Origin: Octopus vulgaris
Lineage: Eukaryota
Direction of reading: 5' to 3'
DNA length: 64,000 nucleotides
Assembly (NCBI GenBank): GCA_951406725.2
Contig: OX597815.1
Span: forward strand, 45,012,001 to 45,076,000
The notes below the pieces were generated by a model. It saw only the letters and a list, made by a program, of their open reading frames with translations, had not been told where the DNA came from and searched no databases. Each line of letters begins with the position of its first letter. The stretch's first letter is position 1. A program made the translations under genes and the position numbers. Below are positions 15,495 to 59,010 of the stretch, piece after piece.

Positions 15495-15605
<111 letters not shown>

Positions 15606-16134
15606 AGAAAAAAAGCAACGAGAATGGATTAGTTGTTTAGTACAATTGTTTCATACGAAGAACAGCTTTATTAAAAGCTGCAAATATTGCAGCAAATACA
15701 AGTGTCCCGTATTCATCAGCCAAAACACATATGAGTTTTCCAAACATCCTAGGGGGTGAGGCTACACTCATAAGTATCGAAGAGAGTTCTATGAAAAGCA
15801 AAGTTAGATTGTAAGCAGACTTCAAATGTTCTCTTATGATGCACAGTTTTATAAAAGGTTTTTAAAAAAGTTTGTTAGCTCCACAGAAAAGGTAAATCCA
15901 TCCATAATAATGCAGGTGTAATTTCCGGAGATATGAGGAGATATTTTATACTCAGAGAAGATGAAAGTATCCATAATAATGTAGGTGTAATTTCCTGATA
16001 TATGAGATGTTGATCACACTTCTATTCGTTTCACAAAATTACTATGTTGGAAGAAGAGATTGGCTATATTGGCTAAAGGAATCGCAAAAGAAGTCAGTAA
16101 AGCAGAAACCGCCCAAATAAGGACATTATGGGAC

Positions 16135-16183
<49 letters not shown>

Positions 16184-29130: not shown

Positions 29131-29189
29131 ATACATACATACATACATACATACATACATACATACATAGACATATATATATGTGTATA

Positions 29190-29394
29190 TATACAATTAA
29201 GGGCTCCTAAATAAAGATGCCGAGTGCTGGGAACACAAAAGGGGATGAATTTATCGAGAGTGAAAATCAAAAACGTTTACCGAAGTTAAAGTTAAAGTTA
29301 TCGGTAAACGTTTTTGATTTTCACTCTCGATAAATTCATCCCCTTTTGTGTTCCCAGCACTCGGCATCTTTATTTAGGAGCCCTTAATTGTATA
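29190..29394. repeat. Perfect 94-bp inverted repeat with 17-nt spacer
   Basis: 29190-29283 is the exact reverse complement of 29301-29394. The spacer is agttaaagttaaagtta. Confidence 0.95.
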
Positions 29395-29525
29395 ACTACA
29401 TGAATAATATTTTTCTATATGAATAATATTTTTGTCTTATGACTAATTCGTCTTTTGTGCTGGGCACCTGGTAGTAAATAATATTACTACCCTTCTTGTT
29501 TATATGTGTATATATATATATATAC

Positions 29526-30122: not shown

Positions 30123-30265
30123 ATATATATATATATATATATATCACAATCAAGGAACGGCCATAATAGGCCATTCACCCACTAGAAATAACAGCCAAAG
30201 CTTTAACCGCAAAATAACATTAATTCCGTAAACCAGGAGAAAATTAAAAAAACATTTACCCTGTA

Positions 30266-30372
30266 ATTTCTTATACGATGCACCGTTTCATCTACTGTTT
30301 AATGGTAAACTAACCTGATTAAATTAAATCAAGCCAATCTTCCATAGGCCCTTAGATTCCTCAGTAAGAAAT
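30266..30372 (-). ncRNA. Type I hammerhead ribozyme (array, minus copy 1)
   Basis: Reverse complement of 31308-31414. Confidence 0.88.
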
Positions 30373-30755
30373 AGCCAGAACGGAACAGATATTTTCACGA
30401 GGCATTTCCGTCCCTGCCTCGGCAATATCTGACCTAAAATTTTCAAATCATCGCACTCGCGCCAAATTTATCGGCAGCAAATAAATATAAGCCGCCGATT
30501 CCATTACGGAATCAACCATAAAATTCATAATTAATCAATATAGGGTGGCAAAAACAATTTTGTATAATTTTTTTGTCACCAGCGGCCTAGTGGGAAAAAA
30601 TTAAATAGTCATAGACCATTTATAAGTTCAACATCACAATCAAGGAACGGCCATAATAGGCCATTCACCCACTAGAAATAACAGCCAAAGCTTTAACCGC
30701 AAAATAACATTAATTCCGTAAACCAGGAGAAAATTAAAAAAACATTTACCCTGTA

Positions 30756-30862
30756 ATTTCTTATACGATGCACCGTTTCATCTACTGTTTAATGGTAAAC
30801 TAACCTGATTAAATTAAATCAAGCCAATCTTCCATAGGCCCTTAGATTCCTCAGTAAGAAAT
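30756..30862 (-). ncRNA. Type I hammerhead ribozyme (array, minus copy 2)
   Basis: Reverse complement of 31308-31414. Confidence 0.88.
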
Positions 30863-31307
30863 AGCCAGAACGGAACAGAGTTTACCATTAAACAGTAGAT
30901 GAAACGGTGCATCGTATAAGAAATTACAGGGTAAATGTTTTTTTAATTTTCTCCTGGTTTACGGAATTAATGTTATTTTGCGGTTAAAGCTTTGGCTGTT
31001 ATTTCTAGTGGGTGAATGGCCTATTATGGCCGTTCCTTGATTGTGATGTTGAACTTATAAATGGTCTATGACTATTTAATTCTTTCCCACTAGGCCGCTG
31101 GTGACAAAAAAATTATACAAAATTTTTTTTGCCACCCTATATTGATTAATTATGAATTTTCTGGTTGATTCCGTAATGGAATCGGCGGCTTATATTTATT
31201 TGCTGCCGATAAATTTGGCGCGAGTGCGATGATTTGAAAATTTTAGGTCAGATATTGCCGAGGCAGGGACGGAAATGCCTCGTGAAAATATCTGTTCCGT
31301 TCTGGCT

Positions 31308-31414
31308 ATTTCTTACTGAGGAATCTAAGGGCCTATGGAAGATTGGCTTGATTTAATTTAATCAGGTTAGTTTACCATTAAACAGTAGATGAAACGGTGC
31401 ATCGTATAAGAAAT
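31308..31414 (+). ncRNA. Type I hammerhead ribozyme, predicted cleavage after GUA (A31406)
   Basis: Stem I ATTTCTTA/TAAGAAAT, core CTGAGGA, stem II ATCTA/TAGAT with a long extension, GAAA, stem III ACGG-tgca-TCGT, H17=A. Confidence 0.9.
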
Positions 31415-31798
31415 TACAGGGTAAATGTTCTTTTAATTTTCTCCTGGTTTACGGAATTAATGTTATTTTGCGGTTAAAGCTTTGGCTGTTATTTCTAGTG
31501 GGTGAATGGCCTATTATGGCCGTTCCTTGATTGTTGATGTTGAACTTATAAATGGTCTATGACTATTTAATTTTTTCCCACTAGGCCGCTGGTGACAAAA
31601 AAAATTATACAAAATTTTTTTGCCACCCTATATTGATTAATTATGAATTTTCTGGTTGATTCCGTAATGGAATCGGCGGCTTATATTTATTTGCTGCTGA
31701 TAAATTTGGCGCGAGTGCGATGATTTGAAAATTTTAGGTCAGATATTGCCGAGGCAGGGACGGAAATGCCTCGTGAAAATATCTGTTCCGTTCTGGCT

Positions 31799-31905
31799 AT
31801 TTCTTACTGAGGAATCTAAGGGCCTATGGAAGATTGGCTTGATTTAATTTAATCAGGTTAGTTTACCATTAAACAGTAGATGAAACGGTGCATCGTATAA
31901 GAAAT
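31799..31905 (+). ncRNA. Type I hammerhead ribozyme, cleavage after 31897
   Basis: Same motif as 31308-31414. Confidence 0.9.
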
Positions 31906-32288
31906 TACAGGGTAAATGTTTTTTTAATTTTCTCCTGGTTTACGGAATTAATGTTATTTTGCGGTTAAAGCTTTGGCTGTTATTTCTAGTGGGTGAATGG
32001 CCTATTATGGCCGTTCCTTGATTGTGATGTTGAACTTATAAATGGTCTATGACTATTTAATTTTTTCCCACTAGGCCGCTGGTGACAAAAAAAATTATAC
32101 AAAATTTTTTTGCCACCCTATATTGATTAATTATGAATTTTCTGGTTGATTCCGTAATGGAATCGGCGGCTTATATTTATTTGCTGCCGATAAATTTGGC
32201 GCGAGTGCGATGATTTGAAAATTTTAGGTCAGATATTGCCGAGGCAGGGACGGAAATGCCTCGTGAAAATATCTGTTCCGTTCTGGCT

Positions 32289-32395
32289 ATTTCTTACTGA
32301 GGAATCTAAGGGCCTATGGAAGATTGGCTTGATTTAATTTAATCAGGTTAGTTTACCATTAAACAGTAGATGAAACGGTGCATCGTATAAGAAAT
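32289..32395 (+). ncRNA. Type I hammerhead ribozyme, cleavage after 32387
   Basis: Same motif as 31308-31414. Confidence 0.9.
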
Positions 32396-32778
32396 TACAG
32401 GGTAAATGTTTTTTTAATTTTCTCCTGGTTTACGGAATTAATGTTATTTTGCGGTTAAAGCTTTGGCTGTTATTTCTAGTGGGTGAATGGCCTATTATGG
32501 CCGTTCCTTGATTGTGATGTTGAACTTATAAATGGTCTATGACTATTTAATTTTTTCCCACTAGGCCGCTGGTGACAAAAAAAATTATACAAAATTTTTT
32601 TGCCACCCTATATTGATTAATTATGAATTTTATGGTTGATTCCGTAATGGAATCGGCGGCTTATATTTATTTGCTGCCGATAAATTTGGCGCGAGTGCGA
32701 TGATTTGAAAATTTTAGGTCAGATATTGCCGAGGCAGGGACGGAAATGCCTCGTGAAAATATCTGTTCCGTTCTGGCT

Positions 32779-32885
32779 ATTTCTTACTGAGGAATCTAAG
32801 GGCCTATGGAAGATTGGCTTGATTTAATTTAATCAGGTTAGTTTACCATTAAACAGTAGATGAAACGGTGCATCGTATAAGAAAT
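32779..32885 (+). ncRNA. Type I hammerhead ribozyme, cleavage after 32877
   Basis: Same motif as 31308-31414. Confidence 0.9.
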
Positions 32886-33129
32886 TACAGGGTAAATGTT
32901 TTTTTAATTTTCTCCTGGTTTACGGAATTAATGTTATTTTGCGGTTAAAGCTTTGGCTGTTATTTCTAGTGGGTGAATGGCCTATTATGGCCGTTCCTTG
33001 ATTGTGATGTTGAACTTATAAATGGTCTATGACTATTTAATTTTTTCCCACTAGGCCGCTGGTGACAAAAAAATTATACAAAATTTTTTTTGCCACCCTA
33101 TATTGATTAATTATATATATATATATATA

Positions 33130-33750
33130 TAACAATTAAGGATAAAATCTTAATAAGGAATCTTAACAAGAAATTATCAGGTAGTTAGCGTGAAAACCTC
33201 ATAAGAGAAAAAATCCGAAAATAATTTTTTCACTTGAAAATATTTATTTATATTCTATAGAGGGCATTATTATACATAAATGCCACACGCTAAGAGGGAC
33301 ATAAGTCATTACTACCAAAATTTAACTAATCATACCGAATGCAGCTCTCGAAGCAAGACATTTAAAAAACTGAATTTAGTTCTATATCACCTGTGATTTC
33401 GCAATTAACGTATTAAATACGTCTTTTGTTCATCAGTAGAACAGATTCTGAACACATCATAAATAAACATAACCAACATACCTAGCGAAGCCAAACAGAC
33501 ATCTGCTCCCCTCGGCGAAGCACATGGAAATGTTTATTCATCATATATTCGGTAAATGGTGGGCTTTTTCGAACTGCATGTCGGTAGAAAAAGTTTTTCT
33601 TCGGAATAAATTTAACAATTAAGGATAAAATATTAATAAGGAATCTTAACAAGAAATTATCAGGTATGATTAGTTAAATTTTGGTAGTAATGACTTATGT
33701 CCCGCTTAGCGTGTGGCATTTATGTATAATAATGCCCTCTATACAATCTA
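33130..33750 (-). mobile_element. Second retrozyme-like family, 483-bp period, 1.1 units on - plus an inverted ~85-bp arm
   Basis: 33130-33183 repeats at 33613-33666, and 33663-33750 is the inverse of ~33250-33336. Flanked by (TA)n. Confidence 0.8.
33379..33442 (-). ncRNA. Type I hammerhead ribozyme (family 2; A10.1-C11.1 mismatch)
   Basis: GTTCTA-CTGATGA-ACAA aa GACGTAT tta ATACGTT aa TTGC-GAAA-TCAC ag GTGA-TA-TAGAAC. Confidence 0.85.
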
Positions 33751-33904
33751 TCTATATATATATATATATATATATATATAACTTACTTGGAGGAATGTAT
33801 GTATGTATATATATGTATATGTATCTGCATGTATGTATGTATGTATATGTGTGTGTGTGTGTCTGTTTGTCTGTCTGTCTGTGTGTGATTATATTCCCTG
33901 GTAC

Positions 33905-48127: not shown

Positions 48128-48206
48128 GATATATATATATATATTACAATTGTTCGTTTGTTTTCCACCTGCCTTCGTCTTTTGTTTATTTTCATAAAGC
48201 TTCCCG

Positions 48207-48268
<62 letters not shown>

Positions 48269-48270
48269 AT

Positions 48271-48880
48271 AAGTAAATATATGGCAGAACGAAGTACCGA
48301 TATTTACTGGAAATAGCGAACGTAATAATACGACGCTAATGTATAGCTTCACCGCGTATGTACTAGCAAAAATGCGTGAGTGCAACAAACTTGAAAAAAA
48401 TTGTCTTACCTCCAGGGAGAACATCTGAAAGATGAAATACCTGGAAAAGGATAATGTGGGACAGGAGCCGGTTTCAAATTTTTCAAGATATCGCTGCACA
48501 CATATACTTGATCTATCTTCATCAGCCAAACATATACCACGACAACATTTCAGATGTTACCACATTAATGCCAATACACTCGACTGAAACGCCAAAACGC
48601 TAACAGAACGAGAACGGTGAAGAAGTTTCAATAAAATTAGTAATGCAATACGAGAGTATTGCCTTTCCAGTAAAGAATAGCCCGTGAGGGAAAATTATAC
48701 ATAGAAGTAAATATATGGCAGAACGAAGTACCGATATTTACTGGAAATAGCGAACGTAATAATACGACGCTAATGTATAGCTTCACCGCGTATGTACTAG
48801 CAAAAATGCGTGAGTGCAACAAACTTGAAAAAAATTGTCTTACCTCCAGGGAGAACATCTGAAAGATGAAATACCTAGAA
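48271..48880 (-). mobile_element. Third retrozyme-like family, 434-bp period, ~1.4 units
   Basis: 48271-48447 repeats almost exactly at 48705-48881. Flanked by TA-rich microsatellites and contains an HHR. Confidence 0.8.
48454..48533 (-). ncRNA. Type I hammerhead ribozyme (family 3), GUC triplet
   Basis: ATG(tt)TGG-CTGATGA-AGAT aga TCAAG...CTTGA aaa ATTT-GAAA-C(c)GG ct CC(t)G-TC-CCACAT. Confidence 0.7.
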
Positions 48881-48890
48881 AATATGTATG

Positions 48891-49026
<136 letters not shown>

Positions 49027-49167
49027 AAAGGAACTCTAATCTCTCTTTTATATTTTGATAAGCATAACAAATGCGCAACCGGTAAAAAGAACTTTCACCT
49101 AATTAAATTACTTAAATTACTTCAATTATTTGTCAGCATTTTCTTCATTTCCTTTTATATATATATA

Positions 49168-49805
49168 CTAGCAGTATCGCCCGGCGTTGCTCGGGTTTGT
49201 AAGGGAAATAACTATATAAGCATTTTTAGAGAGTTATAGCCAAAAAATAGCAAAAAATGCATTAAAAATGGAAAAAATATGATGGTAAATTTTTTTGAAA
49301 AATCGTTGACTCATCGTAGACATTTTTAGAGAGTTACTTCCCTTATATAATAGCGAAAAAATGCATTAAAATGGGAAAAAAACGATGGTAAATTTTTTTT
49401 TAAATCGTAGACTCATGTAGACGCTTTCTTAGCCATTTCTGTTTTGGTGTCTTCAAGCCATGAAGTCGTTGTTCTAAAAGAACACTGGTCTCCTTGACAA
49501 CGCATTACGACGTTGATTTCCTTACACTCCCTTCCCCACAGGTGCAGGTGTGAGCGTGGACGCCAACTCCGCCGCCATCGACACACGAAAAATTATGCAT
49601 TAAAATGGAATATAAAATGATGTTAAATTATTTTTTAAATCGTAGACTCATCGTAGACGCGCGCTAATATTCAGACGGGCTCGATATGAATCACGACTAT
49701 AAGCTACCCGAATTTGGTTAAACTGTACCGCAAAATGTGGGAGTAGTTAGGAATCTAAATCGAAGGGGACAGACACTCTCACAACTACAGTTTTATATAT
49801 ATAGA
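49168..49805 (-). mobile_element. Non-autonomous Helitron (family shared with 52229 and 58448)
   Basis: CTAG plus hairpin at the left, ttttatatatataGA|T at the right, and internal duplicated blocks. Confidence 0.85.
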
Positions 49806-49879
49806 TATACATAGCGCAGTAGTGGTGAGATATGACAGCAAAGAAAAGCATACATTCACTCTCTGCATGCAATTAGACT

Positions 49880-50528: not shown

Positions 50529-50714
50529 ATGTATGTATGTATGTATGTATGTATGTGTGTATGTTTACTTTATTACTAATTACTCTCTTCCAAGAACATT
50601 TTCACTCACTCTTAGCTCTTAGCTTCCCATACATTTTACTCATGTGTCTATCAGCGTCATAGACAGAATACTTTCACTTTAGTCTTCCTCAAATCATTCT
50701 GTCGCTATTTACTT

Positions 50715-51252
50715 TCATTTTATTCGTTGCCCACTGTGTGTGTGCGTTTGCGTGTGGTGTAAACCAGACTAAGAAAAGCATTTGACACACACACCAGAAT
50801 GTGAGTTTTCTGTAAATTTTGCTTAATTGGAGTTTAAATTTTAAAAACTGGACCTGGCATGACGCGATGCATTGTACTCTGAAAAATGCTAGGTAAATTG
50901 TAATTGAAGAAATCCTATATTGTAGATTTGTATAACTCCCAAAGGGAGGCAGATAAAATCTGCCTTTTATAATAAGAGATATATATATCTCTTATTATAA
51001 AAGGCAGATTTTATCTGCCTCCCTTTGGGAGTTATACAAATCTACAATATAGGATTTCTTCAATTACAATTTACCTAGCAATTTTAAGAGTACAATGCAT
51101 CGCGTCATGCCAGGTCCAGTTTTTAAAATTTAAACTCCAATTAAGCAAAATTTACAGAAAACTCACATTCTGGTGTGTGTGTCAAATGCTTTTCTTAGTC
51201 TGGTTTACACCACACGCAAACGCACACACACAGTGGGCAACGAATAAAATGA
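50715..51252. repeat. Spacer-less palindrome, 269-bp arms, centred on (AT)5
   Basis: Centre at 50983/50984 with about 2 mismatches between arms. Each arm starts with Helitron-like A|TCTCTTATTATAAAA. Confidence 0.93.
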
Positions 51253-51803
51253 TAGTAATTCACTTACTGTAGTGAGTGATTCTTTCACTCTGCCTCCCAC
51301 TTCCTCTTTCAACACATAGACACGCAAATATATAAATAAAATTGTAAGCTAACGTGCGTGTGTGTGAGTGTGTGTGTGTGCGTGTGTGTGCGCGCGTGTG
51401 TGTGTGAGGGTGCGTGTGTGTGTGTGTGCGTGTGCGTGAGTGTGTGACAGGAAAGTTTTTACGACGAATACATAAGACCAAAGCAGAGAATGTATTCTTT
51501 TATTCGTTCTTTATTCTTCTGCTTTTTCCAGCCATTGGTCTGTGGCCATGCTGGGGCAATGCCTTGAAGAATTGTAGTTTAATGAATCAACTCCAGTTTT
51601 ATTTTTGTAAGCATTGTACTTATTCTATCTGTTTCCTTTGTCAAACCACTAGGTGACAGGGATGTAAACAAACCAACATTCGTTGTCAAGCAGTGGTGGA
51701 GGACAATCACAAGCACAGACACGCACACACACACACATACATGCAGACACATATACACACATACATACATACATACATATATATATGTGTGTGTATATAT
51801 ATA

Positions 51804-52062
51804 TTGCAGCGTGGAAGGTGTTTGTAAGCCATTTAAGAAACACACAAAAACCGTTACATTCACTTCAACATTTAAATTTAATTTGCCAAAATATTTTCCT
51901 CGCTTTCAGACCGCGACCTGTTCACTGACAAAAATATCGTGCTAACAGGTCGCGGTCTCAAAGCGACGAAAATATTTTGGCAAATTAAATTTAAATGTTG
52001 AAGTGAATGTAACGGTTTTTGTGTGTTTCTTAAATGGCTTACAAACACCTTCCACGCTGCAA
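51804..52062. repeat. Inverted repeat, 119-bp arms, 21-nt spacer, next to (TA)n
   Basis: 51804-51922 versus 51944-52062, about 2 mismatches. Confidence 0.92.
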
Positions 52063-52228
52063 CTGTTTTCGTTCCAGCACACGATCTCAGATCAAGTCAC
52101 TTGCTATGCAAGTACATCTCTGTAACTATATATATATTTATATATATATATATATATATGTATATTGGTAAAAACAGTAAGATAACAAAAGAAAGAAAGA
52201 GACCTCAATATTATGTAAATAGAGGAAA

Positions 52229-52623
52229 TCTTTATATATAAAAGTGAGGTTGTGTGTCTGTCTCCTACGATTTAGATTCCTAACTACTCCCACATTTTGC
52301 GGTGCAGTTTAACCAAAACCGGGTATCTTATAGTCGTGATTCATATCGAGACCGTCTGGGTATTAGCGCGCGTCTACGATGAGTCTACGATTTAAAAAAA
52401 AATTTACCATCAATTTTTCCCATTTTAAATCCATTTTTGACATATATAAGGGAAGTAACTCTCTAAAATTTATTATTAAATCTCAGAACGTAAAAAGCTA
52501 CAGTAACACCCCTCCCCTTTTGTGGTTAGCCATATTGAGATGGCTATTATACTTTACATCTCTAAAAATGCTTATATAATTATTTCCCTTACAAACCCGA
52601 GCAACGCCGGGCGATACTGCTAG
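52229..52623 (+). mobile_element. Non-autonomous Helitron
   Basis: A|TCTTTATATATAAAAG ... cccgagcaacgccggg..CTAG|T. Confidence 0.85.
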
Positions 52624-52638
52624 TATATATATATATAT

Positions 52639-53613
<975 letters not shown>

Positions 53614-57850: not shown

Positions 57851-57931
<81 letters not shown>

Positions 57932-57973
57932 CAAAGTGGAGTTGTGGGGTACCGCACGAGTGGAATTATATAT

Positions 57974-58384
57974 GAAAGAAGGTTTGAAAATGCAATTTAA
58001 AAGATGTTTATTTACTTTACCGGTTTCACTCTTTGGAAAAAGATTGTCAAAAGTAACATGTAGAAGTTTGGTTGCGTTAATTATTGGTTGTTGCAAATTG
58101 CTACATTACATATATACAGTCTTTGGTAACAGGGACATGTTAAGGACATAAAAAAGTTCAACAAGTTCCTTAAAATAATGGGCACAAAGGAACTTATTGA
58201 ACTTTTTTATGTCCTTAACATGTCCCTGTTACCAAAGACTGTATATATGTAATGTAGCAATTTGTAACAACCAATAATTAACGCAACCAAACTTCTACAA
58301 GTTTCTTTTGACAATCTTTTTCCAAAGAGTGAAACCGGTAAAGTAAATAAACATCTTTTAAATTGCATTTTCAAACCTTCTTTC
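57974..58384. mobile_element. Head-to-head inverted PLE-like termini (198-bp arms), each with a minimal HHR (58012-58056 -, 58302-58346 +)
   Basis: Arms 57974-58171 and 58187-58384. Motif TTACTT-TTGACAA-TCTTT ttcc AAAGA gt-GAAA-CCGG-TA-AAGTAA. Confidence 0.75.
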
Positions 58385-58447
<63 letters not shown>

Positions 58448-58449
<2 letters not shown>

Positions 58450-58955
58450 TATATATATAAAACTGTAGTTGTGTGAGTGTCTGTCTCCTACGATTTAGAT
58501 TCCTAACTCCTCCCATATTTTGTGGTGCAGTTTAACCAAAACCGGGTATCTTATAGTCGTGATTCATATCGAGCCCGTCTGAGTATCAGCGCGCGTCTAC
58601 GATGAGTCTACGATTTTAAAAATAATTTACCATCATTTTTTATTCCATTTTAATGCATAATTTTTCGTGTGTCGATGGCGGCGGAGTTGGCGTCCACGCT
58701 CAAACACCTGCACCTGTGTTTGCTTCTCCCCCTTCTTCCCTCCCTCGTGAAGCTGTGGGGAAGGGAGTTTAAGGAAATCAACGTCGTAATGCGTTGTCAA
58801 GGAGACCAGCGTTCTTTTAGAACAACGACTTGAAGACACCAAAACAGAAATGGCTAAGAAAGCCCGAATTGGCATCTATAAAGGAAGTAACTCTCTAAAA
58901 ATGCTTATATAGTTATTTCCCTTACAAACCCGAGCAACGCCGAGCGATACTGCTA

Positions 58956-58956
<1 letters not shown>
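58448..58956 (+). mobile_element. Non-autonomous Helitron
   Basis: A|TCTATATATATAAAAC ... cccgagcaacgccgagcg..CTAG|T. Homologous to 49168-49805. Confidence 0.87.

Positions 58957-59010
<54 letters not shown>

Follow-up and report, generated by a model that had tools for sequence, protein, structure and literature searches.

Metazoan non-LTR retrozymes have been described as non-coding units of low GC content that carry a type I hammerhead ribozyme, have a self-paired predicted fold, lack LTR features and co-exist with Penelope-like elements (PLEs); in the accessible text of that description they occur in arrays, their stem II usually has 4 bp, and RNA circles of ~170-400 nt are reported (PMC7229834). 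The axolotl retrozyme has a dimer-type minimal stem III, and the pairing of two copies through such a stem has been described for amphibian ribozymes (PMC7229834); short palindromic stems III are usual in animal type I hammerheads (PMC4209133). A link between retrozymes and PLEs has already been proposed (PMC7229834; 10.64898/2026.07.22.740005). In the available part of their study, Li, Clavereau and Pollet suggested both an origin from PLEs and mobilisation by them for families of 51-972 bp, mainly of vertebrates, on the basis of co-occurrence and pLTR similarity (10.64898/2026.07.22.740005). EN+ PLEs, for their part, produce 5'-truncated insertions in microsatellites with an inverted arm and a one-sided tail of 30-40 bp, and have two internal start sites (PMC8557442, PMC3846280, PMC11167929); in vitro, both DNA strands are nicked and extended, with no strand difference between the start sites in the portion of the study available (PMC11167929). 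A literature search that had most subscription journals outside its coverage returned no cephalopod retrozyme and no retrozymes with PLE tails.

The 64,000-nt stretch of the Octopus vulgaris genome analysed here (the window; contig OX597815.1, positions 45,012,001 to 45,076,000) contains a 434-nt element that resembles the metazoan non-LTR retrozymes in all the features listed first above, has in many copies the dimer-type minimal stem III of the axolotl retrozyme, and falls within the size range of the families of Li, Clavereau and Pollet. However, it is larger than the reported circles, has a stem II of 43 nt, occurs mostly as dispersed insertions of 1-2 units instead of arrays, and exhibits fixed PLE-type ends and inversions, which the accessible text of PMC7229834 does not describe for these retrozymes; in addition, they are reported as circles, whereas expression and cleavage of the 434-nt unit are putative. 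It shares with EN+ PLE insertions the 5' truncation, inverted arm, one-sided tail, microsatellite target and two internal start sites, but has no ORF and its tail is 60-65 nt long. We consider it probable that the element is a non-coding non-LTR retrozyme copied into (TA)n by a Penelope-type RT-endonuclease, its template probably being circular RNA. The preliminary description of the window had read it as a ribozyme retro-RNA of a diversified class: the non-coding, dispersed, retro-mobilised unit stands, whereas its novelty is tempered by the fact that the class has already been published (PMC7229834). Retrozymes of this kind are thus known, and the family adds mechanistic detail.

The window copy (Table 1) is ~620 nt long and runs from m12 round to m198, m1 being the base after the predicted cut and m434 the last of the monomer, with microsatellites on both sides, in a region with a GC content of 0.36 of a 2.8-Gb genome rich in microsatellites. 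A direct repeat of ~175 bp with period 434 had been claimed for it; the period was borne out and the repeat measures 187 nt. One private variant (1/107 calls at that position) is common to both repeat copies. Site A, the family 3' end used by this insertion, has an internal copy at 48696, and the second family end, site B, lies at 48631-48638, immediately preceded by a 7-bp hairpin within the tail segment. We also observed that 3' stubs of two different PLE families, at 48142-48209 and 49020-49156, flank the element in one microsatellite cluster; the family of the former has 6036 exact ends genome-wide.

Table 1 Features of the 434-nt element and of other hammerhead-bearing inserts in the window
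Feature	Position	Strand	Remarks
Candidate retrozyme insertion	48262..48882	-	single arm, 1.43 units of the 434-nt monomer
Ends of the insertion			site A of the family (3'); 11 nt downstream of the predicted cut (5')
Terminal redundancy, 3' copy	48262..48448	-	183/187 identical to 48696-48882
Terminal redundancy, 5' copy	48696..48882	-	repeat comparison
Tail segment between the two family 3' ends	48631..48695	-	
(TA)n tract adjoining the 3' end	48208..48261	unstranded	target site
5'-flank microsatellites	48883..49024	unstranded	TA, TG, TC, TA
Predicted type I hammerhead ribozyme	48454..48533	-	long internally looped stem II; cut predicted after 48460
Stem I, 5' strand	48533-48526	-	
CUGAUGA core	48525-48519	-	
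Stem II	48518-48476	-	43 nt: 4 bp, 3x3 purine loop, 5 bp, distal hairpin
GAAA	48475-48472	-	
Stem III	48472-48461	-	
GUC triplet	C17 at 48460	-	
Stem I, 3' strand	48459-48454	-	
490-nt hammerhead family	30143-33114		4.6 plus-strand units, ~99% identity, and 1.5-unit inverted arm
483-nt-period element	33123-33759		hammerhead 33436-33385, minus, read by eye
Fourth hammerhead insert, between TA tracts	15604-16137		hammerhead 15719-15641, minus, core at 15719

All parts of the minus-strand type I hammerhead proposed at 48454-48533, including its stems and GUC triplet, were found as claimed. A core-anchored search retrieved 112 ribozymes out of 147 loci, all of them, as selected by that search, with the type I core and three stems, stem I being open. 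The core is CUGAUGA in 111 and CUGAGGA in the remaining one, and the cleavage triplet is GUC in 75, GUA in 35 and AUC in 2. The three core-proximal pairs of stem I are intact in 111-112 of the 112, and the C.U mismatch in stem III of the window copy occurs in 1/112, so the family restores both stems. Compensatory switches were observed in stem I (G-C/A-U, 100/10; U-A/C-G, 99/10) and in stem II (U-A/C-G, 104/4; U-A/A-U, 103/7), the 3x3 loop of which remains almost entirely purine across the family. In 72 rows of the younger subfamilies, 95.4% of the cells pair, versus 30-48% in slid controls, and the fourth pair of stem III is G-C in 25 and U-A in 24. The aligned rows are related and the covariation cells therefore count few independent events; we count the compensatory changes in all three stems as support for a putative selection on the RNA.

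Taken alone, the motif is inconspicuous. The isolated window motif folds no better than shuffles (z -0.01), and in all four copies tested the isolated motif reaches its energy minimum in a fold other than the ideal hammerhead, which we count against our explanation. No hammerhead model appeared among the 150 listed of the 210 Rfam matches of the window, and no Rfam hammerhead was found at gathering score in 4 family loci, a miss for which the long stem II is the likely cause. Nevertheless, the near-invariant core and the pairing covariation confirmed, at the level of the alignment, that the predicted hammerhead is more than a chance motif. The window ribozyme itself is likely impaired, as judged from rare stem-breaking changes and a weak predicted fold: changes at 48463 (stem III mismatch), 48477 (G-C to G-U) and 48492-48493 (distal stem II), all rare in the family, abolish one pair in stem III and two in distal stem II, with one further pair weakened, and its hammerhead fold energy is -3.3 kcal/mol, versus -12.8 to -17.4 for three relatives. 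At 48463 and 48477, the letter typical of the family is present in other sequencing runs.

Of the 112 ribozymes, 51 have a stem III of 6 nt, 8 one of 10 nt and 53 one of 12 nt; in 77 the stem is an exact palindrome. For the 6-nt form, the computed energies make a hairpin impossible (+6.0 kcal/mol) and favour pairing with a second copy (-8.3). In a tree of 82 rows, built with stem III excluded and rooted at the midpoint only, successive subfamilies are visible, all 41 long-stem rows fall on a single branch (100/99) and the 10-nt form is nested inside it; the direction of stem III change as read from this tree is likely.

The 434-nt element is present in hundreds of dispersed copies. The ribozyme 5' part had 258 exact genome matches, m6-26 had 291, the tail hairpin 642 and the minimal-stem-III ribozyme 378, counts that are lower bounds from overlapping patterns, with 0 matches in reversed-pattern controls. 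We studied the 85 insertions on C1-C7 behind the first 100 of the 258 ribozyme-5'-part matches, 24 further loci from m6-26 matches, 40 selected by the tail hairpin, plus BLAST-selected loci. Assembled contigs of runs under five organism labels also carry the unit (24-30 of 30 bins in eight runs); they were not used as evidence of expression because they come without a silent-stretch control and the RNA nature of the runs is guessed. An RNA-level quasi-species was considered and found unsupported, the repeated parts within one insertion differing by 2.4-2.5%; only 11 private variants were common to the repeated parts of one insertion over ~18,800 positions compared.

The longest ATG frame on the circularized monomer has 73 codons. 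Fold z-scores on the ribozyme strand were -4.9 (linear) and -5.5 (circular, from 40 shuffles), against -3.4 on the opposite strand. In the consensus of 24 full units, the ribozyme is predicted at the tip of a long rod in which its two flanks pair together; 98.6% of the cells are paired versus 37-46% in slid controls, with 5 of 118 pairs changing on both sides, for a structure predicted from the same alignment that scored it. The two 3' end sites each fall within an unpaired stretch of this predicted fold or border on one. The family thus combines a non-coding unit of a few hundred nt, a GC content under 50%, tandem ribozymes and a highly self-paired monomer, as non-LTR retrozymes do.

The insertions have a very regular anatomy. 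Among 138 arms in the 85 insertions on C1-C7, 69 end at site A (m193-203), 54 at site B (m253-267), 60-65 nt apart, and 15 elsewhere; (TA)n follows nearly all of the A and B ends. At 107 loci we found 40 single A arms, 10 single B arms and 41 classed head-to-head pairs, besides 6 complex cases, 1 unclassed single arm and 9 pairs in which an end was unclassed. Every one of the 41 classed pairs joins an A arm to a B arm, no adjacent A+A or B+B pair being found in the 107 loci, and the same holds for all 15 adjacent pairs, read by eye, of the 40-locus tail-selected set. At one locus (L250), two B arms separated by ~1 kb share their flank and look like the product of a later duplication. The junctions of head-to-head pairs overlap by a median of 2 nt (BLAST-based). 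Accordingly, 5' truncation, an inverted head-to-head arm, a one-sided tail and a microsatellite target are all present, as in published PLE insertions with their inverted arm and one-sided tail (PMC8557442, PMC3846280) and in the in vitro reaction that starts at two internal sites (PMC11167929). Two fixed ends together with A+B pairing are the PLE 'tail' signature, and from these and the (TA)n targets we infer a PLE enzyme as the copier.

Every arm of more than 454 nt (55 in all) wraps round the monomer, the longest covering 912 model nt, or 2.1 units. Two tandem ribozymes occur in 4 of the 85 insertions (L011, L018, L019, L041), and the window copy holds one. On C1-C7, no array longer than ~2 units was seen behind the first 100 of the 258 matches, and at most two tandem ribozymes were found among the first 100 matches of each of the ribozyme-5'-part and minimal-stem-III patterns. 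The predicted cut is read through in 95 of 100 m6-26 matches (90 loci); the other five are one mutated read-through, one start ~6 nt upstream and three starts at m1-3, close to background. Stops within m1-30 affect 1 of 25 arms at the first crossing and 6 of 12 at the second, the latter a weak excess over the 15-29% per 30 nt just before. A pile-up of 5' ends at the cut, hinted at by the first 30 length-selected loci, was absent in the motif-selected samples. Since the arms read through the cut, the template was usually continuous, either a ligated circle or an uncut multimer; the read-through and the absent pile-up count against our explanation.

The same PLE-mobilised repeat might instead be copied from linear RNA, either an uncut multimer or a cut monomer with a jump from the 5' to the 3' end, the ribozyme cutting rarely or late. 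We hold this to be rather unlikely, although the read-through is what it predicts, the 51 ribozymes with a 6-nt stem III could not form alone, and, the only PLE tested in vitro used uncut RNA as its main template and could dispense with the ribozyme (PMC11167929), a preference that also counts against our explanation, as does the cleavage in vitro of only 1 of 9 Xenopus retrozyme dimers (10.64898/2026.07.22.740005). Nonetheless, the limit of two tandem ribozymes in the matches inspected does not fit long uncut multimers, the rod pairing both ribozyme flanks is conserved, and ribozyme pairing was kept through several subfamily steps, which suggests that the ribozyme is used. In fact, a linear read-through template would become shorter with each generation, given that the copies end at A or B, whereas the subfamilies succeeded one another with the ribozyme intact and, on C1-C7, without long arrays. 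These observations favour a circle, and the template was probably circular RNA.

Alternatively, an autonomous PLE with several tandem 434-nt units in its 3' region might have left the copies as dead terminal stubs (pseudo-LTRs). Their ends, tail and inversions are exactly those of PLE insertions, and retrozymes have been derived from pLTRs in the published work available (10.64898/2026.07.22.740005). However, an RT plus GIY-YIG ORF within the element, as in autonomous PLEs, was not found, all 55 long arms wrap round, and PLE protein matches occurred in 12 of 176 loci (8/136 and 4/40), none continuing an arm upstream. Two loci are suggestive at first sight. In L131 (1020-2810), an A arm meets, head to head and without TA, the 3' part of a PLE that has a CX5CXXC linker and would be Neptune-like by the description accessible in PMC8557442, and in L035 (1323-2750) an arm is fused in tandem, without TA, to the 3' end of a relative of this PLE. 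Yet the joined PLE is unrelated in sequence to the unit, and its family has 6036 ends genome-wide which, with the shared (TA)n targets, makes chance adjacency plausible; 4 retrozyme-PLE adjacencies were seen in 136 loci, with ~1.2 expected from bases. All this makes the pseudo-LTR origin improbable. If the element were a satellite-like repeat or a local duplication that spread at the DNA level, its hammerhead being a relic or due to chance, a window motif that folds like its shuffles and escapes Rfam would be explained, but this hardly tenable idea is already largely refuted by the 5' truncation and fixed 3' ends of hundreds of dispersed copies and by compensatory changes in all three stems.

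As candidate partners of the retrozyme we considered several PLEs. The L131/L035 family was rejected, being too abundant for adjacency to identify it and unrelated in sequence, and so was a PLE fragment in L251, which other repeats separate from the arm. Coding PLEs with intact 781-aa RT and GIY-YIG frames are present in the genome and have two alternative ends ~40 nt apart, each before (TA)n. The 434-nt unit showed no sequence similarity to the 3' regions of 30 GIY-YIG PLE loci (30 of the 148 matches listed, a small part of 6136 candidates), a dissimilarity that we count against our explanation and that sets our evidence, insertion anatomy, apart from the pLTR similarity of Li, Clavereau and Pollet. 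We made some further observations on these PLEs. The one joined in L131 and L035 carries a minimal hammerhead-like motif with CUGUUGA or CUGUCGA replacing the usual core, and many short copies of its family (L227-L239, L246-L247) begin within ~20 nt of one position; these clustered 5' starts upstream of the motif suggest a fixed RNA start. L216 (1745-4090) and similar loci represent a young PLE family with many open 781-aa RT and GIY-YIG frames; in the loci scanned, its sense strand showed no canonical hammerhead near the 3' end.

Other hammerheads occur in the window. Those of the 490-nt array lie at 31316, 31807, 32297 and 32787 (plus) and at 30854 and 30364 (minus); its stem II has 68 nt and its outer ends both lie in (TA)n, 106 nt apart in unit coordinates, a multi-unit insertion that would fit several rounds on a circle. 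The 483-nt-period element, which adjoins this array across a TA tract, has a short inverted arm and a hammerhead with a broken first stem II pair and an AUA triplet. A further insert at 15.7 kb has a 60-nt stem II and an 8-nt palindromic stem III, with no 430-490 period within the window copy. BLAST among the 434, 490 and 15.7-kb families detected no real similarity, the best hit being a 13-nt core match. Hence, the three unrelated hammerhead families of 430-490 nt of the preliminary description are all present, and the unrelatedness holds for 434 versus 490, the 483-nt element having stood outside the BLAST comparison. The flanks of L141, L145, L146, L159 and L255 contain more unrelated hammerheads in which stem II is long and stem III palindromic, so this design appears widespread in the genome. 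The window also contains a repeat with 103-nt internal duplications that begins after TA (49156-49813; further copies at 52228-52641 and 58440-58974), which we take to resemble a Helitron-type non-autonomous element, and long palindromes, several of them centred on TA tracts (50709-51258, 52639-53613, 57863-58459, 29167-29418, 51804-52062).

For the retrozyme, copying from a ribozyme-made circle could proceed as follows. A copy with two tandem ribozymes would be transcribed; by analogy with published retrozymes, the hammerheads, acting in pairs if their stem III is minimal, would then excise the monomer for closure by a host ligase. A PLE enzyme would nick (TA)n and start reverse transcription at A or B, the two ends observed, and copying would proceed upstream across the ligation junction and at times complete more than one round, as the wrap-round arms indicate. 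Priming of both DNA strands, one start being at A and the other at B, would account for the observed pairing, the two cDNAs presumably being joined head to head by short microhomology. Going further, we tentatively propose, as a possibility somewhat short of even, that the ribozyme-made circle recruits the Penelope enzyme through its own pair of start sites, one per DNA strand, without kinship to the pLTR of its helper, and that the ribozyme passed from cutting only in pairs to cutting alone through a single 6-nt lengthening of stem III and later changes that preserved its palindrome.

The stem III series of 6, 12 and 10 nt provides natural monomer-versus-dimer variants of one ribozyme, and the two exact start sites on a 434-nt RNA suit the existing in vitro PLE assay. 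In that assay the start sites showed no strand difference, whereas the classed genomic pairs are always A+B; this strict pairing constrains how the PLE enzyme uses the two DNA strands, a point left unsettled by the in vitro study as far as its accessible text goes (PMC11167929). The enzyme that moves retrozymes has hitherto been argued from co-occurrence and pLTR similarity; in this family, the insertions themselves carry the PLE signature.
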